Shown one piece after another: positions 1-31,098 of a stretch of DNA of 64,000 bases (the first letter of the stretch is position 1; every line of letters starts with the position of its first letter). The notes under the pieces were generated by a model. It searched no databases and was not told the DNA's origin. It was given only the letters and a program-made list of their open reading frames with translations. The stretch comes from an uncultured Gammaproteobacteria bacterium (GTDB lineage: Bacteria > Patescibacteriota > Patescibacteriia > Magasanikbacterales > GWA2-37-8): NCBI GenBank assembly GCA_964355175.1, contig CAYHBZ010000001.1, positions 368,523 to 432,522 on the forward strand, given 5' to 3'. The translations under genes and the position numbers were made by a program.

Positions 1-72
1 CAACGTATGTTCGGTGGCATGAACTAGAGTTTCATCTAAATCTAATACTAATAATTTTTTAAACCTAGGCAT
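1..72 (-). CDS. HAD-superfamily FCP1/NIF-like phosphatase, N-terminal 24 codons only (gene runs off window start)
   Basis: Reverse-complement of 1-72 translates MPRFKKLLVLDLDETLVHATEHTL. The DLDETLVH motif is the catalytic DxDx(T/V) signature of FCP1/NIF-type HAD phosphatases. The start codon is at 70-72. Confidence 0.35.
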   Translation of the reverse strand, partial: MPRFKKLLVLDLDETLVHATEHTL

Positions 73-97
73 ACTGCTTATCAAAATATATAAATTA

Positions 98-604
98 CTA
101 TACCCCCAAAACCCACAGGTCTTGTTTGGTATTTAAGCAACTTTTAGCAATATTAATTAACCCACTATTTATATCTTTAAGTTGCACCAACACTTCTTTC
201 CAATCGTTATCCCAATTAATATTAAAGAAATCACCGACTACATCCATAAACTTAGATTGAGGGGAGGAAATACTATATACATTTGATAAACTAACAAAAT
301 CGTCATATGTATTCACTAAATTTAAATTATTTAAATTTATATTTAATAACTCAATTAAACTAACAATATCTCTTTGTTCATATTTTGTCGGTCCAAAATA
401 ATTAAATTTCGCGTTACTCTTTTCAAAACTATTAGAAAACACATAGCCGTAAATAATATCGTCTAAAAACACAGAATCGCTGTTCCAATGTTGACTTATT
501 TTAGACCAATCTCCGACAAAAAATTCAACATAAGCAGACCCTTTTCTTTCATTATTTTTTACCAATCTTACAGAATTCTTACTCATAAATTTTATTCTCC
601 CCAT
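98..604 (-). CDS. hypothetical protein (168 aa), last gene of the toxin-like locus
   Basis: Intact ORF co-oriented with and 11 nt overlapping the upstream paralog gene. I recognise no family. Confidence 0.45.
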   Translation of the reverse strand: MGRIKFMSKNSVRLVKNNERKGSAYVEFFVGDWSKISQHWNSDSVFLDDIIYGYVFSNSFEKSNAKFNYFGPTKYEQRDIVSLIELLNINLNNLNLVNTYDDFVSLSNVYSISSPQSKFMDVVGDFFNINWDNDWKEVLVQLKDINSGLINIAKSCLNTKQDLWVLGV

Positions 605-1314
605 TTTTTTGGTTCTTTACCAGTTTTATCTTTCCACTCTTTTTCCAATCTTTTCTCCACCAATTCCCAATTCATCTTGTTTGAGCCTCCATTTTCCACA
701 TCTCTGAAATACCATATGCTTGGACCAATTGAAGCGCCATAATACAAAGAATTTTTTGGTGCCTCTTGCCACCGCCACCAATCTCTAATCAATAATTTTT
801 GAATCTCCTCTATTGTAATTATTTTTTCTTCTATAAATGGGTCAAGAAAATTTCTAGCGAACTGTTCATCAATACCAGGAAATATTTTTGCCTGATGCTC
901 CCAAAATACTTCAAAAAGTCGACGAGTTCTAAAACCTTTTGGTAAAATAAATATTAATAAATAAGCAAACTGAATAAAATAAGAAGGATACGGTTTGTAT
1001 GTTTTATAATTTTCTACGGTGTCCGTATTCTCATACCTATTATCATGTTCAAGTAAATAAATAATAAGATCTTCAACTCCTTCTTTACCAAATTCATTAA
1101 GCAAAGTATCAAATAACTCTTGGTGGTTGTCTATAGATATTAAATTTGGGGATATAGAGTCTTCTTTATGAGAACTAATTACTTTGCGATTGCGCATCAA
1201 TGTCCACCTATAAAAATTACCCGTAAAACTCTCTATTTTTTCAGGATCTTCAGTCATCCAATTCAATAAAATATCAAAGGCTTTTTGTAAATCTAATTTT
1301 TTTTGATTAATCAT
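592..1314 (-). CDS. hypothetical protein, tandem paralog A (240 aa); candidate immunity-like protein
   Basis: Shares a ~100-aa identical core (…IDNHQELFDTLLNEFGKEGVEDLIIYLLEHDNRYENTDTVENYKTYKPYPSYFIQFAYLLIFILPKGFRTRRLFEVFWEHQ) with the adjacent ORF at 1307-2002. The termini are divergent. Confidence 0.55.
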   Translation of the reverse strand: MINQKKLDLQKAFDILLNWMTEDPEKIESFTGNFYRWTLMRNRKVISSHKEDSISPNLISIDNHQELFDTLLNEFGKEGVEDLIIYLLEHDNRYENTDTVENYKTYKPYPSYFIQFAYLLIFILPKGFRTRRLFEVFWEHQAKIFPGIDEQFARNFLDPFIEEKIITIEEIQKLLIRDWWRWQEAPKNSLYYGASIGPSIWYFRDVENGGSNKMNWELVEKRLEKEWKDKTGKEPKKWGE

Positions 1315-2002
1315 ATAAAACTAATTTTAAGTAATCGTCACTCCTTGGTTGTTTTTTATATTTGCGATACCAATCTTCAACCAATTGTTTTTCGACTTTT
1401 TTCCATTCGTCAAAACCATAATAAGTTACTATTAGCCAAGGCGAAATCCTACTATCAGCTTCTCCACTACTCTGCCATTTTTGCCACTGTTTTATAATAA
1501 GAGCTTGAATCTCTTCCTTACTAGTTACACCTTCATCTATAAAGGGGTCAAAATACCTACGAACATAGAGCTCATCTACCCCACGACCAATCCTTTCCTG
1601 ATGCTCCCAAAATACTTCAAAAAGTCGACGAGTTCTAAAACCTTTTGGTAAAATAAATATTAATAAATAAGCAAACTGAATAAAATAAGAAGGATACGGT
1701 TTGTATGTTTTATAATTTTCTACGGTGTCCGTATTCTCATACCTATTATCATGTTCAAGTAAATAAATAATAAGATCTTCAACTCCTTCTTTACCAAATT
1801 CATTAAGCAAAGTATCAAATAACTCTTGGTGGTTGTCTATAACAGTGAAACGCGGACTTATTGAATCGCTTTTTCTATCATTTGGCCATTTTCTAAGGTA
1901 ATTTACCCAATTATAAAATTTTTTCCTAAATAATTCTACATAACTAGAATTATTAGTTTTCCAATCCAATAAAATACTGAAGGCTTTTTGTAAATCTAAC
2001 AT
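1307..2002 (-). CDS. hypothetical protein, tandem paralog B (231 aa); candidate immunity-like protein
   Basis: Paralog of 592-1314 with an identical core and divergent N- and C-termini. It lies immediately downstream of the large secreted protein. Confidence 0.55.
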   Translation of the reverse strand: MLDLQKAFSILLDWKTNNSSYVELFRKKFYNWVNYLRKWPNDRKSDSISPRFTVIDNHQELFDTLLNEFGKEGVEDLIIYLLEHDNRYENTDTVENYKTYKPYPSYFIQFAYLLIFILPKGFRTRRLFEVFWEHQERIGRGVDELYVRRYFDPFIDEGVTSKEEIQALIIKQWQKWQSSGEADSRISPWLIVTYYGFDEWKKVEKQLVEDWYRKYKKQPRSDDYLKLVLYD

Positions 2003-2014
2003 AGAAAATAAATA

Positions 2015-5000
2015 CTATTCAAATTTTTTAATCACATCAATTTTAACGCCAGGATATGCACTTTGGATAGTTGATTTAACATCTTCTAAACTCTCGGCAC
2101 TAGGATAAAAATGTCCAGAACTATTATCTATTTCGATCAGATCCTTAGCTTTAAATTTGATAGTACCCGCCGACCTAACATCAGCTCCACCGCTTAATAT
2201 CGGGTGAGGAAACGGCTTATAATTACCGCGCGGAGATATAACCACTTCACCATTTTGTTTTAAAACATATATAATTTCGTCACCTTTTTGTGTTAAACTC
2301 AATAAATAATCATCATTTATTGCTTTCTTCAAACTATAAAATCCATACTGCAAATCGCCTTTTAAATACCCGTCCACTACGGCATTTTTAAGCTGGAAAC
2401 CAGGATAATCAAACGCTTTATTATACCAACTAGCCTCACCGCTACTAATATATTTTTCAAGCACACCAAATATTGGTTTGCCTTCAAATTTTCCTACTTT
2501 AGCAACACCGTTAAGAGTTTCTACGGTATTTTCCGTTACATCACTCAGCTTAGAAATTACTTTCACATCCTCCCCTAATTTATCCATTAATTTTACTTTA
2601 CTAACAGCTTTTAATTTACTCGCTGGAACATAAATTAACAAAATCTCACCTGCTATTTTTCCTCCAACATAGTTTGCTCTTGCCTGGCAACCATTTGGAC
2701 CAATCGAGGTATTATATTCATCTACTAGAGAATTATACGCCGCATTGCCAGAAGATTTTAAGAAATCTATAACATCCTTTTTGCTTATTCCGCTAGCTTT
2801 TTTGGCAATCTCATAGGCCTTATCAGAAGTTTCACCAATATTTATCACCCCTTTTATCAACGGCATTACTAACGAAAAAATATCATCAACTGTTTTTACA
2901 CCAGTATCAAATATACCTTGAACCATTATTAATTCTAAAATAATCGGATTTTTTAGATCTTTATACAACTCACAGCGATACTTCTTGAAAGTCTCAATTA
3001 CAGTAGCACCCGTAGATAAATTCCAACCCACCTCCTGATCATTCTCAAACTCTTGATAAATAACCCCGTTGCGTTTATTTGGATCACCTTCTGGAAAACC
3101 TAAATTTCCACCTGTACCACCATTGGCATTATGCACTTCGGTCAGTTTGCCATAAGTATAATAAATCCACGGCCAAGCCCAGCGTTTATAATAATACATC
3201 TGCCCGTTAACAAAATTTTGGTAAACACCGCTAGTGCCATATTTACTACTAGCCGCACTCGATTCGTCACTTGTAGGAAAACCTACAATTTTTATAATTT
3301 CATTATCATTTTTACCAGCTTTATCCAAAAATCCAGCTTTAAGTCTGTACGCCTGTCCGCTGTTACCATCTGGCACAAAATACACGGTCTCGTAATTACT
3401 GTTGTCACAATTATTCCAACCATTACCAGTACAAATTGGCTGGCGATAAGTACCCAATACACTAGAAAATTTTAAAGTATATTTATTGGTCACGGAACCT
3501 ATATTGTTAATATAAGAACTAAGTTTGTTTTGAACTTCAACTTTAGAGTACCACTTATTATATTTATTTGGACTAAAAAATTTAGCGCCATTGGAAGCTA
3601 ATATATACACATGCTGAACCGAACCAAAATTTACCGTGTCTTTCCAACAAGGAAAACCGTAGGATGAATCCCATCCAGAATTATTTTTAATATAATCATA
3701 CTGCGCCTTGGTTGGGACGCATTGAATAGAATCTACCGAACGCCCGTCTTCATAAGCATAATATTGAGTTGCTTGATCAAATACATAATAATATTTTAAC
3801 ATCTGTGTGATAGTGTCGGTATAAGCCAAATATTGTCCGACCTCTGTAGTATTTCCACCATTCATCTGAGCCTGCTCCCCGATAGCATAGGTACCAGTAC
3901 CGTCAGAAGAGAGCGAGACATACAATATACCCGTCCATACTCCATCGGTGATAGCTTTGTCTGGAGTGACCACTGTATTGCCGGCTTGCACATCTGTGTG
4001 CATATTTTGTTTGGTGTTGGCCGTCAAATTTAACGTGTCAATAATATTTTCATTTGTTTTGGTAATATTATGCACGATATAATCGCTAAGATGCGCGTAA
4101 GCATATTGCAAACCTTTCACTGTAGAAATACCTTTCAGACCAGTAATATCATTAAAAATTTGTCCTTCATAATATGACGCGTCCAAACCCCAGAGCAAAC
4201 GAAAATCTTTGCGATGATTATTAAAAATACCGCGATTGGACCAGTCATTGATATACGATGAAGCATCTATAGTGAGACCTTTGAAATCAAAAGTGGTAGG
4301 CGTACCGTCTATGGAAGATAAAATTCTGTTTTGAGTCACTACCGCGCGTGTGAACACGGTATTGCGACGATAGTCCAATGCTTTTTCCAGAGTATCACCG
4401 GTCTCTTCCAGATGTTGTAAATATTTACTGGCCAAGACGCTGTTGCCTTGCAATAATATTTTAGAATTGGTATCCAAGTTTGGATCTACCTGTACTCTAG
4501 ACAGAGAAACCGCTATGCCTTCGCTATTGCCGGCAATGGAAAACTTTTCATCGGAATATATTTTGGTACCATTTTGAATATAATCAAAACGCAATATCAA
4601 TTGATCGCCTATCTTTATATTATTATCGGTATCATAGTGCGCGTATCCAGCCAACATGTACGGCTTAATATTAACCAAAGCCGCTGGCGTAGCGTGAATA
4701 CCACCATAACTATCTATTACTTGTTTATCGACATCGGTAGCGCCTTCATAGGACAGACTAATCTCCGCGTTGTTTATTTCACTGCCAAAAAATTCATGTT
4801 CAAATACTACACTGTTATCACTTTCTTTAAGTAAAGAAATTTTTACTTGAGCACGATAATTATCCGGAACAGAAGACCAAGCTACTGGCTGAATCAAACT
4901 ACCACCCACATTACCGGTGTGAGTATAATATGGCAAAGTTGGCGGCAATATTTGGAATTCATCAATGACACCAACATTAGCGGATTGAAAACCGGCATTA

Positions 5001-6520
5001 GCTATATCTTTACCAGTAGAATTTTTTAAATCCTGAGAATATTTTTGCAATGGAGACAGCGTTCCGGAATATTGCAAAAATCCATCCCAAAAAATTTGAG
5101 TATTGAAATTGGCGGTATCGTGTACTATTTCATTTTTAGTACGGTTATAAGTTTTCACGACCGCATCAATAGGAATCCACTGTTTTTTGCCATACCCCTG
5201 CAATAGATTTTGGACATCGGCCGTGGTAGTAGCGTTGGCAAAAGATAAAATATTATCAATATTTGCTCCACGTTCATCATAATCATAATACGCTTCCACA
5301 AATACCCATTCCAGACCTAGAGCGGTTTCGTTGGAAAAATCATAGTCCTCGGCTTTGCCATTAAATGTGCCGGCGGATAAAGTGTATACCGGCACTTTAT
5401 TCATAGCCCAAGCCAAATAAGCGGTCTTGAGCTCATCAACACCCAATAAATTTTTTATCTGCTCCACATTCATTTGTACCACACTTTTTTTATAGCGAGC
5501 GGGAATGCCGGCGGCGCGCAACAAAGAAATTGTAAGTGAGCTGGCGTCAAAATCATTACAGACTTTTTCTCTTAGACAACCTAGACTACCTTTTTTCGCG
5601 CCAAAATATGGCTCGTAAGAAATATTCTGACGAACAAAATTTAAAATTTTGACTGGATTATTATTTAGTGAGTTGGCCAAATCCTGAATTTCGCTGTTCA
5701 CCACTACCTCATTATCGGCTTTCACATCGCTGATAGTCGGTAAATATTGGCTATCGGCAGAAACTTGGTCTATTTTAAAGGCCTTATTAAAAATATCTAA
5801 AAGTTTCGGAGCGGGCGGTTCATTTATAGCCCCTTGCAGAGTCTGAATCTTTACTTCATCGGTATTAAATTTAAACTCTGCCGGCTGGGCAGGAATACGA
5901 AATGTTTCACGATCATTAATGTTTGATTTGGAATCTAACCCCAAAATTTCTTTAGTTCTACCCAAGACTCTTTCTATGAAAGTAGGTGTTTCATTCTTTA
6001 ATTTTTTTAATTGTTTATTGAGTAAATCAAAATAGGCTGATTGGTTGCCACTATCCAAATCCAGTTTATCCAAACGATCTTTTTCTGACTGAACAAAACG
6101 CTCAAAATCAGAACTGGAAATTTCTTTGCTTTTATCCAGACCATTCAAACGGCGCATCAAGACAGAATATTCCGGTAATCTTTCTACGACTGGCGTAGAG
6201 GTAACAGCGACCACAGTTTCAGGTGTGACCACGACACTATCAGAAACCGCTTCGGTGTCTATATGGCGCGATTCAACAACCGACTCCGTATCACTAGCCA
6301 CGGTAGTGGAAACAACGAAACTCACATCGCCTATATGGGCTATGGTTGTATCTGAAGATGGAATCTCGACACTTGAAGAAACGGTAGGCTCGATTACATC
6401 CACCAAGCTCAAAGTAGAAGATTCTAGCTCTTGAGCCAAAACCGGAGCAACCGGCATTAAAACCAATTGTAATATTATCAATGAGATGACAGGTTTTAAT
6501 AAGTATTTGGCAATGGACAT
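2015..6520 (-). CDS. large secreted multidomain protein (1501 aa) with a transglutaminase-like cysteine-protease core, an LGFP-type repeat and a C-terminal module of unknown function
   Basis: N-terminal signal peptide (MSIAKYLLKPVISLIILQLVLMPVAPVLAQE) followed by an S/T/V-rich linker. The motif GCLREKVCNDFDASSLTISLLRAAGIPARY matches the transglutaminase-like core signature (C..[FY]A..L...LRA.GIPAR). GNLGFPEGD…GVIYQEF resembles an LGFP repeat. The C-terminal ~120 aa (…HPILSGGADVRSAGTIKF…IDNSSGHFYPS…) is unassigned. Confidence 0.7.
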   Translation of the reverse strand: MSIAKYLLKPVISLIILQLVLMPVAPVLAQELESSTLSLVDVIEPTVSSSVEIPSSDTTIAHIGDVSFVVSTTVASDTESVVESRHIDTEAVSDSVVVTPETVVAVTSTPVVERLPEYSVLMRRLNGLDKSKEISSSDFERFVQSEKDRLDKLDLDSGNQSAYFDLLNKQLKKLKNETPTFIERVLGRTKEILGLDSKSNINDRETFRIPAQPAEFKFNTDEVKIQTLQGAINEPPAPKLLDIFNKAFKIDQVSADSQYLPTISDVKADNEVVVNSEIQDLANSLNNNPVKILNFVRQNISYEPYFGAKKGSLGCLREKVCNDFDASSLTISLLRAAGIPARYKKSVVQMNVEQIKNLLGVDELKTAYLAWAMNKVPVYTLSAGTFNGKAEDYDFSNETALGLEWVFVEAYYDYDERGANIDNILSFANATTTADVQNLLQGYGKKQWIPIDAVVKTYNRTKNEIVHDTANFNTQIFWDGFLQYSGTLSPLQKYSQDLKNSTGKDIANAGFQSANVGVIDEFQILPPTLPYYTHTGNVGGSLIQPVAWSSVPDNYRAQVKISLLKESDNSVVFEHEFFGSEINNAEISLSYEGATDVDKQVIDSYGGIHATPAALVNIKPYMLAGYAHYDTDNNIKIGDQLILRFDYIQNGTKIYSDEKFSIAGNSEGIAVSLSRVQVDPNLDTNSKILLQGNSVLASKYLQHLEETGDTLEKALDYRRNTVFTRAVVTQNRILSSIDGTPTTFDFKGLTIDASSYINDWSNRGIFNNHRKDFRLLWGLDASYYEGQIFNDITGLKGISTVKGLQYAYAHLSDYIVHNITKTNENIIDTLNLTANTKQNMHTDVQAGNTVVTPDKAITDGVWTGILYVSLSSDGTGTYAIGEQAQMNGGNTTEVGQYLAYTDTITQMLKYYYVFDQATQYYAYEDGRSVDSIQCVPTKAQYDYIKNNSGWDSSYGFPCWKDTVNFGSVQHVYILASNGAKFFSPNKYNKWYSKVEVQNKLSSYINNIGSVTNKYTLKFSSVLGTYRQPICTGNGWNNCDNSNYETVYFVPDGNSGQAYRLKAGFLDKAGKNDNEIIKIVGFPTSDESSAASSKYGTSGVYQNFVNGQMYYYKRWAWPWIYYTYGKLTEVHNANGGTGGNLGFPEGDPNKRNGVIYQEFENDQEVGWNLSTGATVIETFKKYRCELYKDLKNPIILELIMVQGIFDTGVKTVDDIFSLVMPLIKGVINIGETSDKAYEIAKKASGISKKDVIDFLKSSGNAAYNSLVDEYNTSIGPNGCQARANYVGGKIAGEILLIYVPASKLKAVSKVKLMDKLGEDVKVISKLSDVTENTVETLNGVAKVGKFEGKPIFGVLEKYISSGEASWYNKAFDYPGFQLKNAVVDGYLKGDLQYGFYSLKKAINDDYLLSLTQKGDEIIYVLKQNGEVVISPRGNYKPFPHPILSGGADVRSAGTIKFKAKDLIEIDNSSGHFYPSAESLEDVKSTIQSAYPGVKIDVIKKFE

Positions 6521-6776: not shown

Positions 6777-8426
<1,650 letters not shown>

Positions 8427-18891: not shown

Positions 18892-20520
18892 TTATCTGGT
18901 AATACTAATTGCTTCAGCGTTTTCCGCACTACAAGCCTGAACATTTATTCTACCACCGGCTGTTTTTTGAATGGCGTAATATGTCTGGCTGTTACTGCCA
19001 GTTTTAGGATCAAACGGTAGAGAGGTGATATAAGTCGGAGCTAGCGCGGACGAAAGATCCAAACAAGCGGCGGCAGTGGTGGATGATGGAGAAGATCCGC
19101 CGCTTGAACCACTAGTACTCCCACTAATTATAGCACTTTTTAGCTCAGGAGTTAAGGCGGAATCGACGGTGTCTAGAAATGCTTTGTATTGGAAATATCG
19201 ATTATTAGAAATATTGGCGAGGGATACTGATGGAGTCGAATTGGAAGTATTGGAAGCTTCAGAATAATAGGTGTTGGCAGTGCCATCAGGACCAAAAAAT
19301 GTACCGTCAGAACAGTTGGCTTGAGCGCAGGATCTTGCTTGATATTTCAAACTAAGGGCGCCGCGTTTATACATATCACTAACTTCTGTGACAGAAAGAG
19401 CGCGAGAAAATACTGCTACCTCATCAATTAAACCTTGAAAAAAACGATTACTACTGTAGGTCGATCCAATTCTAGGATTGTGTAAAATTATATTATAATT
19501 ATTCGAAGTGGTTTCAGATTCTTTGACACCGTTTACATACACTGTAGCTTTACTGGTAGCATTATTTAAAGTATAAACTAAATGATACCACTGATTGAGA
19601 CTAACAGCCGTAGTAGAAAATACAAACGCACCGTTATTTAAAGCACACTGGACCAAATTGCTAGTATTATTTAATTGACAATGTAAATCACCGCCTGCCC
19701 AACCTTGGCTACCAAACAAACCGCGCATTTCACCTGATACTCCAGTGGATTTAAACCACATGGCAACAGAAAAATTAGTAAAATTACTATTATTTAAAGG
19801 AATTCCAATAAAATCTCCCGACCCGTCAAAACTTCCGCCGGTTCCAAACTTTGCACTGGCCGCCATAGCAGGACAACCATTGCCGCTACAGGTACCATTA
19901 TTATTGTTTCCGGAATTGTCGACAAAACTAGTCGCACCGCTGCTTTCGTCCAAATGCATCAATAAGACATTGCCATTCATACTCACATTCCCCGTTGGAT
20001 AGCCGGTCTCTGCAGCACCGCTGTTTGACAAGGCTTTACCTGTCGGCCTATTTGGCACCCAGGCAAGCGTGGACCAAGCGGCGCTGGCAGCAGCATCTTT
20101 AATGTCTGAGGTATAGGAACCACCAGTCTGTCCAACCGAAAGATTTAATAAAGAATTATTTGTGTTGTAAGTAGTATTACTATATGTACCGGCGAAAGTT
20201 GATTGACTATTATCAGTCATGGATACAGGACCGCCACTGCTGGTAGCACTACTGCCACCACAAACAACATCACATCCGGAATTGGCAGTGCCCAGCATTC
20301 TGAGATTGGTGTCGATGTTATTCGGAAACAAACCATCATTATCGAGAGAGTACTGATAAATAGCATTCAATATAGTACTGAGATCGCTTTTTCTGGCGGC
20401 GTTTCTCACTTGTGCCAATTGTTTTCCAGGATTAATGGCAACAATAACTATGCCGGCTAATATCGCAATAGCGGCTACGACTAACAGAATTTCTAATAAT
20501 GTAAAAGCTTTTTTATTCAC
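18892..20520 (-). CDS. type IV pilin-like protein with central LamG_3 (concanavalin-A-like) domain, paralog 1
   Basis: Class III signal peptide and conserved pilin helix (KKAFTLLEILLVVAAIAILAGIVIVAINP). Central region with the LamG_3 signature (…NQWYHLVYT…YVNGV…GLIDEVAVFSRALSVTEV). C-terminal module shared with the other paralogs. Confidence 0.75.
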   Translation of the reverse strand: MNKKAFTLLEILLVVAAIAILAGIVIVAINPGKQLAQVRNAARKSDLSTILNAIYQYSLDNDGLFPNNIDTNLRMLGTANSGCDVVCGGSSATSSGGPVSMTDNSQSTFAGTYSNTTYNTNNSLLNLSVGQTGGSYTSDIKDAAASAAWSTLAWVPNRPTGKALSNSGAAETGYPTGNVSMNGNVLLMHLDESSGATSFVDNSGNNNNGTCSGNGCPAMAASAKFGTGGSFDGSGDFIGIPLNNSNFTNFSVAMWFKSTGVSGEMRGLFGSQGWAGGDLHCQLNNTSNLVQCALNNGAFVFSTTAVSLNQWYHLVYTLNNATSKATVYVNGVKESETTSNNYNIILHNPRIGSTYSSNRFFQGLIDEVAVFSRALSVTEVSDMYKRGALSLKYQARSCAQANCSDGTFFGPDGTANTYYSEASNTSNSTPSVSLANISNNRYFQYKAFLDTVDSALTPELKSAIISGSTSGSSGGSSPSSTTAAACLDLSSALAPTYITSLPFDPKTGSNSQTYYAIQKTAGGRINVQACSAENAEAISITR

Positions 20521-20528
20521 ACAAAAAA

Positions 20529-22172
20529 TTATTTTGTTACAGTTATTGCTTCTCCGTTTTCAGGAGAACACGACTGCACATTAATACGACCGGCGGCGGT
20601 TTTTTTCACAGCGTAATAAGTTTTGGCACTATCGCCCACCTTTGGATCAAACGGAATAGAAGTGATATAGGTTGGCGCCAGCGCGGAAGAAATATCCAAA
20701 CAAGCGGCCGCTGTAGACGACGAAGCACCCACACTGCCTTGCACCACAGTCTGCGTACCGGCCAGATCCACACTCTTTAATTCCGGCGTCATTGATGTAG
20801 CAGGAGAATCAAAAAAAGTTTTATACTGAAAATATTGATTACTACCAATATTACTAAGTGATAAGGACGGAGTGGAAATAGATGTATTACTACTTTCTGA
20901 ATAATAAGTATTGACTGTATTGTCCGGACCAATAAATGTACCGTCTGAACAATTGGCTTGAGCGCAGCTTCGGACTTGGTATTTCAATGATAGGGCGCCG
21001 CGTTTGTACATATCAGTTACTTCTGTAGCTGACATAGAACGATTAAAAATAATTGCCTCATCCACCAAGCCATTATATTGGCCAAATCCCAACTGAATTG
21101 GGGTAGTGTTATTCCTAATACTAGTAAAGGCAAAATTCTTTGTAGACAACAAAACTCCGTTTAAATAAATTTTTCCTACACCATTATCAAAAGTAAAAAT
21201 TATATGTTGCCAGGCATTATCACCTATCCAAGTACCGTCCTGATATTCATAAGTAGTGCCAGCTGGATTAACTAAAAATACTCGCCAATAAACATTGCCG
21301 CTAATAGAGAAAGATCCATTACTAGGATTAAAACCAGCACCTTTTCCAATAATATGTCCGTAGCTTGGCCAACTGCTGGTAGCCACACTATTAAACCAAG
21401 CACCGAATGTAAGTTGATTAGAAAAAGTTAAGCTGGTACTATTTGGAACTGTTATTGGATTAGTACCGGCTTTAAAATTAGCGGCATTACCGAACTTACC
21501 AGATATCATGCTTGGACAGTTTGGATTAACACAATTTCCATTATTATTTTTACCTGAAGTATCTAAAAAAGCGGTGGCACCACTGCTTTCATCTAAATGC
21601 AATAATAATAAATTACCGCTCATATTGGCATTACCGGTGGGATAACCAGTTTCGGCAGCACTATTATTTGGCAAGGACTTTCCTGTAGGACGATTTGGCA
21701 CCCACGCCAAGGTCGTCCAACTAGTGACACCGGCTGAATCTTTTATGTTTGAAGTATATGTACCGGAAGTCTTATTAACCGAAAGGCTCAGCAAACTTGT
21801 ACCATTATTATAATTAGTGTTGGAAAATGTTCCGGAAAAAGTGGATTGGCTATTGTCGGTAATAGCGACTGGCACGGTTTGAGAAGTAGAACTACCGGCT
21901 ACTGGACCACAACTCACTCCACATCCTGATCCACTGGTACCAAGCATTCTCAAATTGGTATCGATAGATCCAGGAAAGGCCCCACTATTATCGAGCGAAT
22001 ACTGATAGATGGAATTTAAAATAGCACTAGCGTCTGATTGCCTAGCGGCATTCCTAGAGGCCGCTAATTGCTTACCTGGATTTATGGCAACAATCACAAT
22101 ACCAGCCAACACCGCAATTGCGGCCACGACTAAAAGAATTTCTAATAATGTAAACCCAGAATTTTTTTTCAT
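20529..22172 (-). CDS. type IV pilin-like protein with LamG_3 domain, paralog 2
   Basis: GFTLLEILLVVAAIAVLAGIVIVAINP N-terminus. Divergent LamG-like middle. Conserved C-terminal ~130 aa. Confidence 0.75.
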   Translation of the reverse strand: MKKNSGFTLLEILLVVAAIAVLAGIVIVAINPGKQLAASRNAARQSDASAILNSIYQYSLDNSGAFPGSIDTNLRMLGTSGSGCGVSCGPVAGSSTSQTVPVAITDNSQSTFSGTFSNTNYNNGTSLLSLSVNKTSGTYTSNIKDSAGVTSWTTLAWVPNRPTGKSLPNNSAAETGYPTGNANMSGNLLLLHLDESSGATAFLDTSGKNNNGNCVNPNCPSMISGKFGNAANFKAGTNPITVPNSTSLTFSNQLTFGAWFNSVATSSWPSYGHIIGKGAGFNPSNGSFSISGNVYWRVFLVNPAGTTYEYQDGTWIGDNAWQHIIFTFDNGVGKIYLNGVLLSTKNFAFTSIRNNTTPIQLGFGQYNGLVDEAIIFNRSMSATEVTDMYKRGALSLKYQVRSCAQANCSDGTFIGPDNTVNTYYSESSNTSISTPSLSLSNIGSNQYFQYKTFFDSPATSMTPELKSVDLAGTQTVVQGSVGASSSTAAACLDISSALAPTYITSIPFDPKVGDSAKTYYAVKKTAAGRINVQSCSPENGEAITVTK

Positions 22173-22175
22173 CTT

Positions 22176-23810
22176 CTATTTTGTTAGACTAATGGCCTCG
22201 CCATTCTCCACTGAACAAGCTTGAACATTTATTCTACCGCCAGCTGTTTTTTTTGCAGCATAATATGTTTGGCTGTTGCTACCGGTTTTGGGATCAAATG
22301 GCAGGGATGTAATATAGGTTGGTGCAAGAGCTGACGAAAGATCTAAACAAGCGGCTGCGGTGGTGGATGAAGATCCTCCGCCAGAACCACTAGTACTCCC
22401 ACTAATTACAGCACTTTTTAGCTCAGGAGTTAAGGCAGAATCAGTGGTGTCTAGAAATGCTTTGTATTGGAAATATCGATTGTTGGAAATATTGGTGAGA
22501 GATAGTGATGGAGTGGCGTTGGAAGTGTTGGAAGCTTCGGAATAATAGGTGTTGGTAGTGCCATCAGGACCAAAAAATGTACCGTCAGAACAGTTGGCTT
22601 GAGCGCAGGATCTAGTTTGAAATTTTAGACTTAGAACACCGCGTTTGTAAATGTCTGAGATTTCTGTGGCGGATAGGGATCGGTTGAAGACAGACGCTTC
22701 ATCGATGGTGCCGGTAAAATTATATGCCAAAACACCTGATTCCCCACCACTAAAATCCGTTCCGATATGGGCTACCGCGTTATTAATTCTAGGTTGACCG
22801 GTCTGAGAAGAACTGCCATCCAACACCCCGTTAATATAATATTTTACTGTTGCGCCATCCCAGGTAGCACTAATTAAAGACCATTGATTTAAATTTACTG
22901 CTCCGGTTCCAATATTGGCCGCTCCACCTACCCACAGTTGTATTCTACCGGTATTATTATACAACCCAAACCAATAGGCGGTGGCATGAGCTTTGGCTAT
23001 TACTGTATGATAGGTATGATCAGAAAAAGATGTTGGATAAATCCAAGCACTCCATGTGCCTTGACCCACATCCAAACTATTACTGTCAGCAACATTTAAA
23101 TAGGTGTTATTAAAATTACCAGCTGTACCAAATTTTCCAATTTGACCCATCGTAGGACAGGCGTTACCACTACAAGTCGCATTATTACCACTCCCCGAAC
23201 TATCGGAAAATGTAGTTGCTCCAAGAGCTTCGTTCAAATGTAGAAGTAAAACATTGCCGTTCATATTGATATTGCCGGCTGGATAACCACTTTCAGTAGC
23301 GCTATTATTTGGCAAGGCTTTGTTGGTAGGACGATTTGGGGTCCAAGCAAGAGAAGACCAAGTCGCGCTAGCAGTAGTGTCTTTAATGTCTGAGGTATAG
23401 GTGCCTGAGGTTTGGGACGAAGAAAGGTTTATTAAACTAGTATTGGTGTTGTAAATGGTGTTGGCATATATACCAGCAAAGGTTGATTGGCTATTGTCGG
23501 TGATGGTGAGAGTGTTACCACTCGAGGAACTACTGCTTGCCCCACCGCAGGATACATTACAACCGGAGGCGGCGGTGCCAATCATTTTTAGATTAGTATC
23601 TATATTATTTGGAAATTGTCCATTGTTATCCAAAGAATATTGATAAATTGAATTTAAAATTGCACTAACATCTGATCTTCTAGCAGTGTTCCTGGTAGCC
23701 GCCAGCTGTCTGGCCGGATTTATTGCCACAATCACAATACCGGCCAACACCGCGATCGCGGCCACGACCAAAAGAATTTCTAATAATGTAAAAGCTTTTG
23801 CTTTTTTCAT
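22176..23810 (-). CDS. type IV pilin-like protein with LamG_3 domain, paralog 3
   Basis: KAFTLLEILLVVAAIAVLAGIVIVAINP N-terminus. Divergent middle. C-terminus ~90% identical to paralogs 1 and 5. Confidence 0.75.
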   Translation of the reverse strand: MKKAKAFTLLEILLVVAAIAVLAGIVIVAINPARQLAATRNTARRSDVSAILNSIYQYSLDNNGQFPNNIDTNLKMIGTAASGCNVSCGGASSSSSSGNTLTITDNSQSTFAGIYANTIYNTNTSLINLSSSQTSGTYTSDIKDTTASATWSSLAWTPNRPTNKALPNNSATESGYPAGNINMNGNVLLLHLNEALGATTFSDSSGSGNNATCSGNACPTMGQIGKFGTAGNFNNTYLNVADSNSLDVGQGTWSAWIYPTSFSDHTYHTVIAKAHATAYWFGLYNNTGRIQLWVGGAANIGTGAVNLNQWSLISATWDGATVKYYINGVLDGSSSQTGQPRINNAVAHIGTDFSGGESGVLAYNFTGTIDEASVFNRSLSATEISDIYKRGVLSLKFQTRSCAQANCSDGTFFGPDGTTNTYYSEASNTSNATPSLSLTNISNNRYFQYKAFLDTTDSALTPELKSAVISGSTSGSGGGSSSTTAAACLDLSSALAPTYITSLPFDPKTGSNSQTYYAAKKTAGGRINVQACSVENGEAISLTK

Positions 23811-23821
23811 TATTTTTTTTA

Positions 23822-24268
23822 TTATCTAGTAACACTGATAGATGCGCTATTTTCGGCAGATGGAGCGCTGACAGTAATGCGTCCATTGGCAGTCTGTAAA
23901 ATTTTATAACCGGTACCATTGGTACTGGCGGCGGTTGGATCGGTTGGAATAGCCGTCAAATAAACTTCGTTTAAAGTAAGTGCGGACAAATCCACTAGGC
24001 CAGCACAACTACCACCGGTCTTACAAACTTCTACCGCGTTCTGAGTAATACCAGATGGCAATGCGCCTTTATTATCAATTGAATATTGATAAACAGCGTT
24101 TAAAATCGTGTTCACATTTACTCTTCTTTGCGCGTTACGAGTATCGGCCAATTGTTTGCCTGGATTGATAGCAATAATTACGATACCGGCCAAAATGGCG
24201 ATAGCGGCCACCACCAATAAAATTTCTAAAAGGGTAAAACCCTTTTTATTTAAATTTTCCATATTCAT
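23822..24268 (-). CDS. short type IV pilin (148 aa) lacking the LamG insert
   Basis: KKGFTLLEILLVVAAIAILAGIVIIAINP prepilin N-terminus. Its C-terminal beta-domain (…TANGRITVSAPSAENSASISVTR) is homologous to the C-terminal module of the large paralogs. Confidence 0.75.
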   Translation of the reverse strand: MNMENLNKKGFTLLEILLVVAAIAILAGIVIIAINPGKQLADTRNAQRRVNVNTILNAVYQYSIDNKGALPSGITQNAVEVCKTGGSCAGLVDLSALTLNEVYLTAIPTDPTAASTNGTGYKILQTANGRITVSAPSAENSASISVTR

Positions 24269-24310
24269 ATTATGAATAATTAATAAATTAATTTTTTAAA
24301 TTAGATATAT

Positions 24311-25996
24311 TTATCTTGTCACACTTATAACTTCAGAATTTTCCGCGCTACAGGCCTGAACATTTATTCTGCCACCAGCGGTCTTTTGAATGGCATAATA
24401 TGTCTGGCTGTTACTACCAGTTTTGGGATCAAATGGTAATGAAGTGATATAAGTTGGAGTCAATGCCGAAGAAAGATTCAAACAAGCGGCAGCGGTGGTG
24501 GACGAAGAAGATCCTCCACTAGAACCACTGGTACTCCCGCTAATTATAACACTTTTTAACTCCGGAGTTAAGGCGGAATCGACGGTATCTAGAAATCCTT
24601 TATATTGGAAATATCGATTATTGGAAATATTAGCGAGAGACAGTGACGGAATAGTATTGGAGGTGTTGGAAGCTTCGGAATAATAGGTATTGGCAGTGCC
24701 GTCGGGGCCGGCGAATGTACCGTCGGAGCAGTTGGCTTGGACACAACTGCGGACTTGGTATTTTAGACTAAGGGCGCCGCGTTTGTAATGGTCGGCAACT
24801 TCGGTTGCAGAAAGGGCGCGGTTATAAAGAGCAAATTCATCCAATGTACCACTAAAAAAATAATTTGTTCCGGCTCCGCGGTCGCCAAAATAAATTGGCT
24901 GATTACCAAAATTATTGGTATTATTGGCATTCAGACCACTGTTTGTGCCGGTAGTTTTTGATCCATTTATATAGGTAGAGACTTCGTTGGTTGGCAAACT
25001 TTTATCAAACACTACCACCACATGATACCAAACATTGGTCTGTAAAATATTATCAGCCACCCAAACAGAATAATACACATTGCCTCGTACGCCGGCTCCA
25101 ATTTTACCGTTAGGATTGATCGATACAACGTAACCATCGGAAACATTATTATAATTTGTAGAAGCTTCAAAAATTTGTTCACCGACAGCTGGTGTCAAGG
25201 AAGCAGGTTTAAACCAAAAAGATACCGATATTTTGTTGGTAGCCGAGACATCTACCGGACCAGTCTTGGCATAGTCATCTACCCCATCAAACTTTACACC
25301 TGTGCCAAAAATTCCACTTGATTGATAAGTTAATCCATTAAAAGTAGCGGCATTATTACCACTGCCAGATAAATCTTGCCAAGCTCCGCTCGCTTCATCC
25401 AGGTGATACAAAAGTACATCCCCACTCATGTTAGCATTCCCACTTGGATAACCGGTTTCAGTGGCACCAGAGTTTGGCAATGGTTTATTGGTAGGACGAT
25501 TTGGTATCCAAGCCAATGTAGACCAAGTGGCACTGGCGGTGGCGTCTTTAATGTCTGAAGTATACGTACCAGGGGTTTGGTTGGCAGAGAGATTTAAGAG
25601 ATTATTATTTGTATTGTAAGTGGTGTTGCTGTAAGTACCGGCAAAAGTGGATTGACTATTATCGGTAATGGATACAGGACCACCACTGCTGGTGGCACTA
25701 CTGGCACCACAAGAAACATTACAACCGGAATTTGATGTACCGAGCATCCTTAGGTTAGTATCGATGGTGTTTGGGACCAACCCAGTATTATCTATCGCGT
25801 ATTGATAAATTGCGTTTAAAATTGCGCTCACATCACTACGACGAGCAGCATTTCTTGTTTGGGCTAATTGTTTGGCCGGATTTATTGCAACCACAACTAT
25901 ACCGGCTAAAATGGCAATAGCGGCCACTACCAGAAGAATTTCTAGCAAAGTGAAACCAGTTTTAATTTTATAACATTTATGCTCCATAATTACCAA
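24311..25996 (-). CDS. type IV pilin-like protein with LamG_3 domain, paralog 4 (561 aa)
   Basis: TGFTLLEILLVVAAIAILAGIVVVAINP N-terminus. LamG-like middle (…FDGVDDY…WYHVVVVFD…YINGS…). Conserved C-terminus. Confidence 0.75.
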   Translation of the reverse strand: MVIMEHKCYKIKTGFTLLEILLVVAAIAILAGIVVVAINPAKQLAQTRNAARRSDVSAILNAIYQYAIDNTGLVPNTIDTNLRMLGTSNSGCNVSCGASSATSSGGPVSITDNSQSTFAGTYSNTTYNTNNNLLNLSANQTPGTYTSDIKDATASATWSTLAWIPNRPTNKPLPNSGATETGYPSGNANMSGDVLLYHLDEASGAWQDLSGSGNNAATFNGLTYQSSGIFGTGVKFDGVDDYAKTGPVDVSATNKISVSFWFKPASLTPAVGEQIFEASTNYNNVSDGYVVSINPNGKIGAGVRGNVYYSVWVADNILQTNVWYHVVVVFDKSLPTNEVSTYINGSKTTGTNSGLNANNTNNFGNQPIYFGDRGAGTNYFFSGTLDEFALYNRALSATEVADHYKRGALSLKYQVRSCVQANCSDGTFAGPDGTANTYYSEASNTSNTIPSLSLANISNNRYFQYKGFLDTVDSALTPELKSVIISGSTSGSSGGSSSSTTAAACLNLSSALTPTYITSLPFDPKTGSNSQTYYAIQKTAGGRINVQACSAENSEVISVTR

Positions 25997-27866: not shown

Positions 27867-29435
27867 TTACGGACTAAGAGTAGAGCCGGTTTTTACATAT
27901 TGAGCACTGACCCACCCAAATTGATCCGGGCCTAAAATTATTTGATACCAACCGTCTTGTCGCTGTAAAAATTTAAATTGTTCGCCTACCAGTGCTTTGC
28001 GTATAAGCTCAGATTTAGAGGAAGAAGCCATGCGAATATTTACATATCCCAAAGAAGTGGAAGCCACCTCAAGCATATCCGGACCAAGCAAACTAACTTC
28101 GGGTGGAGGTAACATCGGAGAAGGGACGGTGGAACTGGTCGATACTGATGTACTGGAAACTGTGCTAGTAGGAGCTCCTTTAGGTCCAATAATTATTACT
28201 GAGCTGGTAGACATGGTGCTAGTGCTAATAATGGCACCAGCAACTACCGGAGACACAGCGCTAACCGGAGCAGACTGGGAAGAAGAACCGGACTGGCTAG
28301 GACCCTCATCATTTTTATTACTCAAACCACCCACCAAGCTATATATTGGCAAAATTACTGCCAAGGCTACTGCCACCACACCAAGCCAAACTATCACGAG
28401 CAACAAAGGCTCCAAAATGACGCTGAGATTTTTGGTTGTTAATTCGGTTTTAGCTTCAAAAGTTTCGCTAATATTTATAAATATTTTGGAAAGCGCACCC
28501 GATCTCTCGCCCGCCCCGATTAAACTCTGAATCGGAGTAGGGATATATTTTTTTATTTTTTTGTTGGAAGCAAAACTTTGTTCAAAAGACTTTCCCTCTT
28601 CTATCTGATCGTGCAAATAATTATAAATTTTCCCGTAAGACCTCAAGGTGCTGGAATCTTTTAGGGATGACAGAGCTTGCAACACGGGCAAACCAGAATT
28701 TAGCAATGTGCCCATGATATATCCAAATCTGGCCAACTCCGCTTCGCGGATTAAATTTTTGATACCGGGAATTAAAAACAGTAGCCACTGACCGATGAAT
28801 TTGGTTTTGGAAAAAACAAATAAAAAATATAGTATTAAACACAAACCAACCAAAAAAGACGGTACAACTATTGCTCCATATTCAGACAAAAAGGCACCAA
28901 AGCTCATCAACAGCCTGGTGACCAAAGGTAATTTGAGATTCAGCTGACCAAAAACACTGGCCAGGCGCGGCAAAATAAACCAAGCAATACCAATACCCAC
29001 CACCATCGCTATGGCCATCACAAATACCGGATACATCATGGCGGCGCGAATTTTGGATTGAAATGATCGGCTCTTGGATTGTTGCGTCACCACGACAGCC
29101 AAACTCTCATGCAATCTACCACTGTCTTCACCGATCTTAACTAGTGCAATAATATGGGCCGGTAAAATTTCAGTTTTACCAAGCGCGATAGACAGGCTAA
29201 AACCAGCACTGATATCTTCTACCAAATTATCAATGATATTTAGTAACTTGGTAGATTTTACTTCGGTTTTTATCGCTTGCAAGGACTCAATAATATCCAT
29301 GCCGGAAGCCAAAAGCATGGCCAAATTTTCAATAAAATATTCTTTTTCTTCATTAAAACCAAAACTAAAAGCCAGAATTGATGGTTTTTTAGGTTTCTCA
29401 TCTTTTTGATTGTCTATTTTTTTATCCTCGCTCAT
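27867..29435 (-). CDS. pilC: type IV pilus platform protein PilC/GspF fused to a C-terminal S/T/P-rich linker and SH3b-like domain
   Basis: Two T2SSF repeats with three TM helices. After the last TM comes a ~90-aa Ser/Thr/Pro low-complexity tract, then GYVNIRMASSSKSELIRKALVGEQFKFLQRQDGWYQIILGPDQFGWVSAQYV, which matches the bacterial SH3 pattern. Confidence 0.85.
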   Translation of the reverse strand: MSEDKKIDNQKDEKPKKPSILAFSFGFNEEKEYFIENLAMLLASGMDIIESLQAIKTEVKSTKLLNIIDNLVEDISAGFSLSIALGKTEILPAHIIALVKIGEDSGRLHESLAVVVTQQSKSRSFQSKIRAAMMYPVFVMAIAMVVGIGIAWFILPRLASVFGQLNLKLPLVTRLLMSFGAFLSEYGAIVVPSFLVGLCLILYFLFVFSKTKFIGQWLLFLIPGIKNLIREAELARFGYIMGTLLNSGLPVLQALSSLKDSSTLRSYGKIYNYLHDQIEEGKSFEQSFASNKKIKKYIPTPIQSLIGAGERSGALSKIFINISETFEAKTELTTKNLSVILEPLLLVIVWLGVVAVALAVILPIYSLVGGLSNKNDEGPSQSGSSSQSAPVSAVSPVVAGAIISTSTMSTSSVIIIGPKGAPTSTVSSTSVSTSSTVPSPMLPPPEVSLLGPDMLEVASTSLGYVNIRMASSSKSELIRKALVGEQFKFLQRQDGWYQIILGPDQFGWVSAQYVKTGSTLSP

Positions 29436-29445
29436 GGGTAAAAAA

Positions 29446-31098
29446 TTAAAATTTTGGCGCCTCCGCTACACGCAATAATTCTTCCAGAGTAGTAACACCA
29501 CTTTTTACTTTATCAATACCATCTTCAAATAAAGTGACTGAACCTTGCGCGCGGGCCACTTTCCAAATCTGGGCGGTGGAAGGATTTTTCAAAATAAGTT
29601 CCTCTAGCTCGGGAGTGACTTCAATAAATTCATAAATAGCAGTACGCCCCTTAAAACCGGTATGACCACAGCTGTCACATCCTTTTCCTTGATAGAGCAC
29701 GATATGTTTTCCGGTAAAATATTTAGAAGCATCTTCGGAAATATTTTTCTTGATTTCTTCCTTGGATGAGTTCACGCTATAGCGACATTTATCACAAATC
29801 TTGCGCACCAAACGCTGAGCAATAAGTACCTCAAGAGTAGAGGCCAATAAAAATGGCTCAATACCCATATCCAACAAACGCGGCACCGCCGTAGCGGCAT
29901 CATTGGCGTGAAAGGTAGACAATAATAAATGTCCGGTCAAAGCCGCGTTCACCGCAGTCTCGGCCGTTTCCTGATCACGAATTTCACCTACCAAAATAAT
30001 ATCCGGATCCTGACGCACAATCGAGCGCAAACCTTTGGCAAAAGTAAGATTTGTCTGGGCATTTACCTGGATCTGATTGATGCCCGGCATTTTATATTCT
30101 ACCGGATCTTCAATGGTGGTAATATTTACATCCGGACTATTTAATAATTTTAGCAAAGCGTAGAGCGAAGTAGTTTTACCGGAACCGGTCGGACCGGTCA
30201 CCAGAATCATACCAAACGGTTTGTTGGAAGCGGTGAGCAATAATTTTTGATCATGTTCAGACAAACCCAAATCAGCAAAAGAAAAACTGCGTACATATTG
30301 AGACAACAAACGAATTACCACCTTTTCACCATTTAAGGTAGGCAAAATGGAAATACGCATATCAAGCGAATTATCCCCTTTTACCTGACGAATAGCGCCG
30401 TCTTGCGCGGAAAAATGCTCATCAATAGGCAACATAGCCTGCACTTTAATACGATTCAAAATATTTCCATAGTATTCTTTTGGAATACGACCAGCTTCTT
30501 GCATTACACCATCAATACGAAAACGGACAATTACTTCTTTGTCCTGAGGCTCAATATGAATATCGGACGCGCGATAAGCCGAAGCATCGTCTACAATCTG
30601 CTCAATAATCTCCGGCGCGATGCGTTTTTGTTGTTTGATAATATCGCCAAAACGAGTGGCTAGAGTTTTGAGATAATGAATAAAGGTCGCTTCAACATCT
30701 TCGGCAAAAGCAAAGGCCAAAGATATTTTTTTACCTTTAAAAATTGTTTTTAATTTTTTGGTTAATTCAGGATTGGTGGGATTATCGGTCGCGATAATTA
30801 AGTCATCGCCATTTTGTTGAAATACTACGGCTGTAAATTCTTTGGCCGTGTCTTCCGGTAATAACTTCACCTGCTCAGCCGAAGGCTGATTGGTAGTCAG
30901 ATTGGCGTAGCTTATTTTATCGGATTCAGCAATGGCTTGACCCAACAAATCTTTATTGATAATTTCCTGCGACAATAAATAATCCAAAAATTTACCTTCC
31001 TCCCCTTTGGTGGCGGCCTCCGCTTTTTTGACATCCTCATCGGTTATATAATTACCATCCAGCAAAACTTGTTTTATTTTTTTGTCTTCAATTTTCAT
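29446..31098 (-). CDS. pilB: type IV pilus assembly ATPase PilB/GspE
   Basis: Walker A GPTGSGKTT. Asp/His boxes. Tetracysteine motif CDKC…CDSCGHTG. 550 aa. Confidence 0.9.
   Translation of the reverse strand: MKIEDKKIKQVLLDGNYITDEDVKKAEAATKGEEGKFLDYLLSQEIINKDLLGQAIAESDKISYANLTTNQPSAEQVKLLPEDTAKEFTAVVFQQNGDDLIIATDNPTNPELTKKLKTIFKGKKISLAFAFAEDVEATFIHYLKTLATRFGDIIKQQKRIAPEIIEQIVDDASAYRASDIHIEPQDKEVIVRFRIDGVMQEAGRIPKEYYGNILNRIKVQAMLPIDEHFSAQDGAIRQVKGDNSLDMRISILPTLNGEKVVIRLLSQYVRSFSFADLGLSEHDQKLLLTASNKPFGMILVTGPTGSGKTTSLYALLKLLNSPDVNITTIEDPVEYKMPGINQIQVNAQTNLTFAKGLRSIVRQDPDIILVGEIRDQETAETAVNAALTGHLLLSTFHANDAATAVPRLLDMGIEPFLLASTLEVLIAQRLVRKICDKCRYSVNSSKEEIKKNISEDASKYFTGKHIVLYQGKGCDSCGHTGFKGRTAIYEFIEVTPELEELILKNPSTAQIWKVARAQGSVTLFEDGIDKVKSGVTTLEELLRVAEAPKF

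Follow-up and report, generated by a model that had tools for sequence, protein, structure and literature searches.

A sharply bounded island of identity in tandem candidate immunity genes of a Patescibacteria toxin locus, probably maintained by repeated gene conversion

How do two adjacent paralogs come to agree base for base across their middle third while differing strongly at both ends? The question is posed by two overlapping genes, g1 and g2, that follow the gene for a predicted polymorphic toxin in 64,000 nucleotides (nt) of DNA from an ultra-small, metagenome-assembled bacterium placed by GTDB in the Patescibacteriota (Magasanikbacterales; GenBank assembly GCA_964355175.1, contig CAYHBZ010000001.1, positions 368,523–432,522 of the forward strand), a stretch to which we refer throughout as the window. 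The reading that we favour, at a probability of about 0.78, is that g1 and g2 are tandem immunity paralogs that duplicated before the lineages carrying them split, and that their core has been kept identical by repeated homology-dependent conversion while the flanks diverged. Only exchange between the copies, by conversion or recombination, accounts for the data presented here, and these data support it. The process is already known from other bacteria, and this locus is a real and clear further example in an unusually clean form, a sharply bounded island of 81 codons that is identical within genomes and carries about one silent substitution per site between lineages.

The identity tract and its history

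Both genes lie on the minus strand as intact open reading frames (ORFs), g2 (window 1307–2002, 231 amino acids) directly after the toxin gene and g1 (592–1314, 240 amino acids) directly after g2. Positions 891–1135 in g1 are identical base for base to positions 1597–1841 in g2, an exact match of 245 nt at an offset of 706. The tract is in frame in both genes and encodes 81 residues (61–141 of g1). A preliminary description of this DNA had quoted the same residues and had placed the identity at about 893–1140 and 1597–1845, correct in substance and a few bases off at the edges. Its further statement that the outer thirds have diverged strongly is borne out by pairwise alignment, which gives 58.6% nucleotide identity for the 5′ third and 50.2% for the 3′ third; third codon positions in the flanks are 48% identical, and the flanks nevertheless remain clear protein homologs (BLASTP 3e-91 overall). 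Chance is excluded as the origin of the tract. The longest identical run, at 245 nt, lies far above the maximum of 45 reached in 10,000 shuffles of matches and mismatches, and at third positions alone the longest run is 83, compared with at most 38 in as many shuffles. No k-mers of the core were found elsewhere in the 64-kb window.

Homologs of the two genes were aligned and their contigs fetched, which showed the gene pair to be present in two additional, related lineages from other metagenomes. We call genes with g1-like ends A-type and those with g2-like ends B-type. The window lineage comprises the window itself, in which the end of the toxin gene is followed by the B and then the A gene, and contig L001, which carries a chimera in their place. 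Lineage B (ENA) is represented by L003, with the toxin end, a full B gene and the start of the A gene, by L002, with the toxin end followed by a chimera of B head, core and A tail, and by the protein records P0004 (a normal A-type fragment), P0014 and P0020 (both of the chimera type). Lineage C (JGI, two samples) shows, on L004 and L005, a B gene that is incomplete and, behind it, a complete A gene. The g2 protein itself is identical to the database record P0005.

Dividing the codon alignment into N-terminal third, core and C-terminal third revealed a clear incongruence in the segment identities, in which the flanks cluster by gene type and the core clusters by genome. In the N-terminal third, orthologs from different lineages share 76–83% of their nucleotides and paralogs within a genome 54–60%; in the C-terminal third, the corresponding values are 67–80% and 46–51%. 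The core reverses this order, with 80–88% identity between lineages and 100% within the window genome. The number of synonymous substitutions per synonymous site (dS), calculated together with its nonsynonymous counterpart (dN) by the Nei–Gojobori method, is 0.8–1.3 for the core between lineages compared with 0 within the window's genome.

The only other lineage with both cores assembled is lineage C. The two copies on L004 have an exact tract of 242 nt in common, the ends of which fall within about 3 nt of those in the window, and the L004 core differs from the window core at 30 positions. L004 and L005, from two samples, are 99.98% identical over 11 kb and show the same arrangement; both contigs terminate at or within the first copy of the core, which is where a real repeat would be expected to break an assembly, and L005 covers only the last 127 nt of that copy. 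For lineage B, the A-type and B-type genes, known from separate records (P0004 and P0006), encode one and the same core protein sequence, with about 10 substitutions absent from the window's core.

These comparisons place the duplication before the separation of at least three related lineages of the candidate phyla radiation (CPR). The core has apparently been homogenised separately in each genome, with the same boundaries, and the data support sustained concerted evolution by gene conversion. The preliminary description had proposed recent conversion or recombination between the copies; exchange between them is upheld by a dS of 0 and by the incongruent trees, whereas a single recent event does not agree with the same-boundary tract of 242 nt in L004 or with the identical core proteins of lineage B.

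The polarity of the change can be read from the wider family. It is small, with 17 homologs that mostly end in the A-type C-terminus ...GKEPKKWGE; the A-type ends are common to the outgroups in Magasanikiibacteriota and elsewhere, and the B-type ends are restricted, among these homologs, to the three close lineages. The A-type ends are therefore probably ancestral and those of g2 and its orthologs derived, in both the N- and the C-terminal third.

On this basis, we propose the following course of events. After the duplication, the B copy would have altered its ends quickly, with the A copy retaining the ancestral ones, and homology-dependent conversion of the RecA type would have gone on wherever homology remained. 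Once the flanks had fallen past the identity needed for strand exchange, tracts would have become confined to the core. Such an island could maintain itself, as conversion would start and resolve only where the copies match, leading to the same two boundaries each time, with flanks at about 50% identity stopping any further spread of the tract. With the core under the strongest constraint, homogenisation would be harmless, or useful if the core contacts the toxin, such that changes tracking the toxin would reach both copies. The locus would then indicate that CPR bacteria, with their small genomes, carry out homology-dependent conversion and continue to do so over time.

Deletion-type chimeras and the meaning of the island

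L001, an ENA contig of 1243 nt at 3.5x coverage, consists of window positions 2280–1597 joined through the repeat to 1135–332, at 100% identity. Its junction corresponds to the exact loss of one 706-nt unit, and the chimera that it encodes (P0001) is in frame and combines the head of g2, the core and the tail of g1. L002 is likewise identical (100%) to L003 for 498 nt and then changes to an A-type tail. P0014 and P0020 also combine a B head and core with an A tail, P0014 coming from the same sequencing run as the normal A-type fragment P0004. Crossing-over between the 245-nt direct repeats would remove a 706-nt unit and leave precisely such an in-frame chimera of g2 head, core and g1 tail. An assembler that skips the loop in the repeat graph yields an identical contig, and so the chimeras reflect either real variation in copy number or a repeat collapsed during assembly. 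The proposal in the preliminary description that the repeat is a hotspot for deletion consequently stands as plausible but unproven, with the one-unit deletion chimera present on short contigs in two lineages and open to explanation by collapse. An ancestral gene was also considered for the chimera and rejected, as the outgroups have A-type N and C termini.

The island could, rather than being a passive by-product, be a recombination cassette maintained by selection, in which a perfect 245-nt repeat placed at helix boundaries allows N- and C-terminal modules of the immunity proteins to be shuffled and the locus to switch at high frequency between two genes and one. We regard this as a doubtful proposition. 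Were it true, the chimeras found in two lineages and four records would be real, functional alleles, and populations would vary in their immunity repertoire towards variants of the new toxin domain described below.

Also unlikely in our judgement is that the conversion is not continuous and that each genome underwent one recent mosaic event, in which the core of one copy was overwritten a single time not long before sampling, for example, during a cycle of duplication and deletion by unequal crossing-over. Zero differences within the tract mean that the last event alone is visible, and the array could be reset if a deletion chimera were duplicated anew. Such a scheme, however, requires that events at identical boundaries happened independently in two or more lineages that stand a dS of about 1 apart. 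Repeated events at the same boundaries are likely only where an island of homology already exists, which amounts to concerted evolution, and the reciprocal product, an A head with a B tail, is absent among the 17 family members.

The toxin and its candidate immunity genes

The gene upstream of g2 (window 2015–6520, minus strand) encodes a predicted secreted polymorphic toxin of 1501 amino acids, with a hydrophobic N-terminal leader, judged directly from the sequence rather than by a signal-peptide predictor, a trunk with Pfam Transglut_core and LGFP domains, a junction motif and a C-terminal tip. The junction motif (DEYNTSIGPNGC, residues 1267–1278, window 2687–2722) is kept on contigs L006 and L007 and in an ORF on L011 that consists of the tip only. 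The tip, a predicted toxin domain of about 72–80 amino acids (residues 1430–1501, window 2018–2233), is marked by invariant alignment columns with the conserved motif R..PHPxL.GG..V.SAG..KF...I.N.SGH.

A word-indexed homolog search with the tip returned P0018 only. An exhaustive profile search of representatives with the last 253 residues of the toxin gave 203 matches of two kinds. Profile positions 1–80, the junction region, match trunk homologs of about 1450–1550 amino acids that lack this tip; all six of those scanned have the transglutaminase trunk, and three of the six carry known tips, EndoU_bacteria in P0029 and P0031 and an AHH nuclease in P0036. Profile positions of about 165–255, the tip, match proteins of 59–4667 amino acids, mostly near their C termini, and account for most of the 203, among the matches listed. 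One of these is an RHS protein (P0065; RHS_repeat, DUF6531), which bears the tip at residues 1595–1675. Tips therefore appear to be exchanged at the junction motif, and a trunk, a junction, alternative tips and the occurrence of this tip on an unrelated trunk together give the locus the anatomy of a polymorphic toxin system.

The tip had no match in Pfam or NCBIfam and chance-level matches only in a profile search of the PDB, and its AlphaFold2 (AF2) model, built from only two sequences, reached a predicted local distance difference test (pLDDT) score of 43 and is unusable. Its secondary structure suggests a β-hairpin followed by the SGH residues and then a helix, and in the set of proteins P0032–P0169 the domain is also seen as short stand-alone ORFs.

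At every locus with visible upstream sequence, the tip immediately precedes a member of the g1/g2 family (window, L001–L003, L006, L007 and L010–L015). The L011 tip-only ORF (255 amino acids, like P0018) starts 11 residues ahead of the junction motif, and a family member comes after it in turn. Positions 54–2623 of L011 form a cassette array with a possible toxin end (118 amino acids), a gene of 227 amino acids, the tip-only ORF and the family member. By eye, the 227-residue product resembles that of a gene of 222 amino acids after the A-type gene of lineage C (L004 1471–2139); if the two are related, immunity-type genes may have been shuffled between loci.

Within the window, the genes from toxin to g1 are tightly packed. 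The stop of the toxin gene and the start of g2 are 12 nt apart, the g2 stop and g1 start overlap by 8 nt (ATGATTAA, window 1307–1314), and the g1 stop overlaps the following ORF by 13 nt (592–604). This succession of overlaps and a short gap suggests a single, translationally coupled operon. In polymorphic toxin systems the place directly behind the toxin is that of the immunity gene, and g1 and g2, which hold this place, most likely provide immunity to the upstream toxin tip.

The proteins themselves belong to a predicted all-helical, uncurated family. No family matched g1 or g2 in Pfam or NCBIfam at E ≤ 1, and neither EsaG (DUF600) nor TipC gave a signal in these databases at that threshold; neither protein has a signal peptide, as read directly from the sequence. 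An AF2 model of g1 (pLDDT 85.9) contains nine helices, and in this model the core comprises the helices 64–89, 111–123 and 131–142 together with a conserved loop at 90–110, such that the predicted helix ends coincide with the tract boundaries. A Foldseek search with the model recovered no similar solved structure, and a PDB sequence search with a profile of the family gave chance-level matches only. The tail ...TGKEPKKWGE is kept in most full-length members, including the most distant (41–48% identical to g1), and all B-type copies have ...DDYLKLVLYD in its place.

Alternatively, g1 and g2 could assist the large protein rather than confer immunity, for instance as a chaperone, an adaptor for its export or an activator, with conversion still occurring between them, an accessory role that we consider improbable. 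The family lacks homology to known immunity families, and the conservation of its core and of the GKEPKKWGE tail across phyla is unusual for fast-evolving immunity proteins. Furthermore, on L006, a Magasanikiibacteriota contig, the whole protein of 1502 amino acids is 67% identical to the window toxin, with trunk and tip conserved together. Against this, the family goes with the tip rather than with the trunk, as seen after the tip-only ORF of L011, and the tip is also found on the RHS protein; no g1/g2 homolog was recovered away from this tip in a survey that left out the neighbourhoods of the EndoU- and AHH-tipped trunks. The absence of a signal peptide from both proteins also argues against such a role.

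In identifying the locus, the analysis brings to light an uncurated transglutaminase/LGFP trunk of polymorphic toxins in Patescibacteria, as well as a widespread, uncurated, predicted toxin domain of about 80 amino acids at the C terminus and a candidate immunity family that is all-helical.

Assembly, constraint and precedents

Could the identity have been produced by assembly? In that case, the cores would differ in reality, and the assembler would have placed one consensus path in both genes or duplicated a collapsed repeat. Every sequence considered here comes from metagenome assemblies, contigs of a related lineage break at the repeat, collapsed-looking chimeras exist, and one related contig (P0020) is visibly chimeric. 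The island itself, however, can hardly be such an artefact because unconverted cores, if about 50% identical like the flanks around them (46–60% identity, 48% at third positions), would be too different for an assembler to merge. The same boundaries recur around another sequence in the independently assembled L004, with L005 as a second sample, and both ORFs are intact and in frame; a handful of differences could be masked at most. We therefore give this explanation little weight. Graph simplification could nonetheless conceal a small number of genuine differences within the tract. In practice, the repeat is a spot at which metagenome assemblers break or collapse, and gene counts and 'chimeric' proteins recorded for this locus in public databases need care.

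Purifying selection alone, acting on a protein or an embedded DNA or RNA element intolerant of change, is a far weaker candidate and can be set aside: the core is indeed the best-conserved part of the family in the alignment of the 17 homologs, with a dN/dS of 0.03–0.05, but 20–29 of its 81 codons differ only synonymously between lineages, so that its silent sites are free to change, and the identity cannot stem from selection, be it on the protein or on an embedded element at the nucleotide level. For comparison, dN/dS is 0.10–0.27 in the orthologous flanks and 0.55–0.84 in the paralogous flanks (g1 against g2). A natural control for constraint without conversion appears to be provided by a tandem pair of family members in Gracilibacteria (L007; JAESSS010000077, 9991–11223), which follows a toxin homolog of 38% identity. 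In the core region the two copies share 90% of their amino acids, yet only 50–55% of their third positions. An embedded RNA or DNA element was rejected separately, as the repeat has no Rfam match and its silent sites vary freely between lineages. A diversity-generating retroelement was also rejected, as the two repeats show 100% identity and each is part of a coding sequence, whereas the paired repeats of such an element, of about 100–150 nt, differ mainly at template adenines and have a reverse transcriptase close by; no reverse transcriptase occurs among the neighbouring genes examined, although no dedicated search for one was made.

Several observations weigh against the view that g1 and g2 are immunity paralogs kept alike by repeated conversion. 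The Gracilibacteria pair has no identity tract (longest exact match 23 nt, third-position identity 0.30–0.70), and conversion is thus no general property of the family. In lineage B, the exact match at the DNA level covers 31 nt of the second core on one contig, the remainder being seen at the protein level and in separate records. The assignment of immunity follows from gene position only; the family has no known relative and the tip no known activity. The chimeric contigs are short, one of them at low coverage (L001, 3.5x), and misassembly is present in the data set of P0020, an ENA contig of 1167 nt in which the chimera continues into unrelated sequence of a different amino-acid composition. 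De Bruijn-graph assemblers such as MEGAHIT can merge near-identical paths, so that a reported identity of 100% may stand for at least about 95%.

The closest precedent is the homology-block recombination of the tandem immunity genes esaG (Staphylococcus aureus) and tipC (Streptococcus) of type VII secretion systems (T7SS), which recombine through such blocks, with lost genes and chimeras as the products (Garrett et al. 2022, PMC9484751). As in those systems, a string of non-identical immunity paralogs follows a polymorphic toxin gene, nucleotide blocks of high identity in otherwise variable genes would act as recombination substrates, deletion and chimera products are seen (here possibly assembler collapses), and segment trees disagree. 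The present locus differs in having two copies with one perfect central block of 245 nt, rather than two to three blocks in up to 12 copies, and in belonging to a different protein family, without DUF600/EsaG or TipC signal, in a CPR/Patescibacteria host. Its toxin combines a signal-peptide-like leader with a transglutaminase/LGFP trunk and is not an LXG/T7SS substrate, and its block appears to have been homogenised independently in lineages separated by a dS of about 1.

Among the polymorphic toxins, the contact-dependent growth inhibition (CDI), Rhs and MafB systems are known for orphan cassettes of tip and immunity gene. Polymorphic toxin systems were reportedly treated by Zhang, Aravind and co-workers in 2012, and meningococcal tpsA cassettes are said to be another example. 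CDI, Rhs and MafB have in common with the present locus a conserved trunk, a junction motif, exchangeable tips, an immunity gene directly downstream and the occurrence of a tip-only ORF with an immunity gene; their best-known recombination, however, swaps the tip together with the immunity gene, whereas here recombination involves a segment inside the immunity genes themselves.

Classical bacterial concerted evolution by gene conversion is represented by the duplicated tuf genes of Salmonella and Escherichia coli and by the rRNA operons. There, too, paralogs are identical within a genome and diverge between species in a homology-dependent manner. Homogenisation there extends over the entire gene; at this locus it is confined to the middle third, between sharp and conserved boundaries, and the flanks are near saturation. 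Outside bacteria, work on the functionally diverged tandem duplicates of frog ATP1A1 is reported to describe partial and ongoing gene conversion that opposes their divergence (bioRxiv 10.1101/2020.08.04.234435). To that extent the two cases are alike as tandem pairs, and they differ in that the frog genes belong to a eukaryote, to another gene and to another selective setting.

The surroundings of g1, g2 and the toxin gene add several observations. Directly downstream of g1, an ORF of 168 amino acids (window 98–604, minus strand) is a possible further orphan immunity gene; it had no family match in Pfam or NCBIfam and is also found at the same position on L001. The G+C content is 0.30 over the immunity genes (window 1–2000) and about 0.40 in the remaining window, a low value, as is typical where a gene tail is accessory or has been exchanged. 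On the other side, immediately upstream of the toxin gene, lies a GroEL gene (window 6777–8417), and L006 has an ORF of 544 amino acids, GroEL-like by eye, at the same position. As a GroEL-like ORF adjoins the toxin gene in both, the toxin locus seems to occupy a conserved chromosomal site.

Elsewhere in the window (18892–25996, minus strand), four tandem paralogs of 542–561 amino acids with a laminin-G-like domain adjoin type IV pilus genes (T2SSF, 27867–29435; T2SSE, 29446–31098). Three of the four show an N-terminal methylation (pilin) motif, and only the copy at 20529–22172 scores above the Pfam threshold. Copies 1, 3 and 4 are 83–86% identical in one stretch of 300 nt and 68–73% identical elsewhere, a mosaic that hints at older conversion among these paralogs as well.

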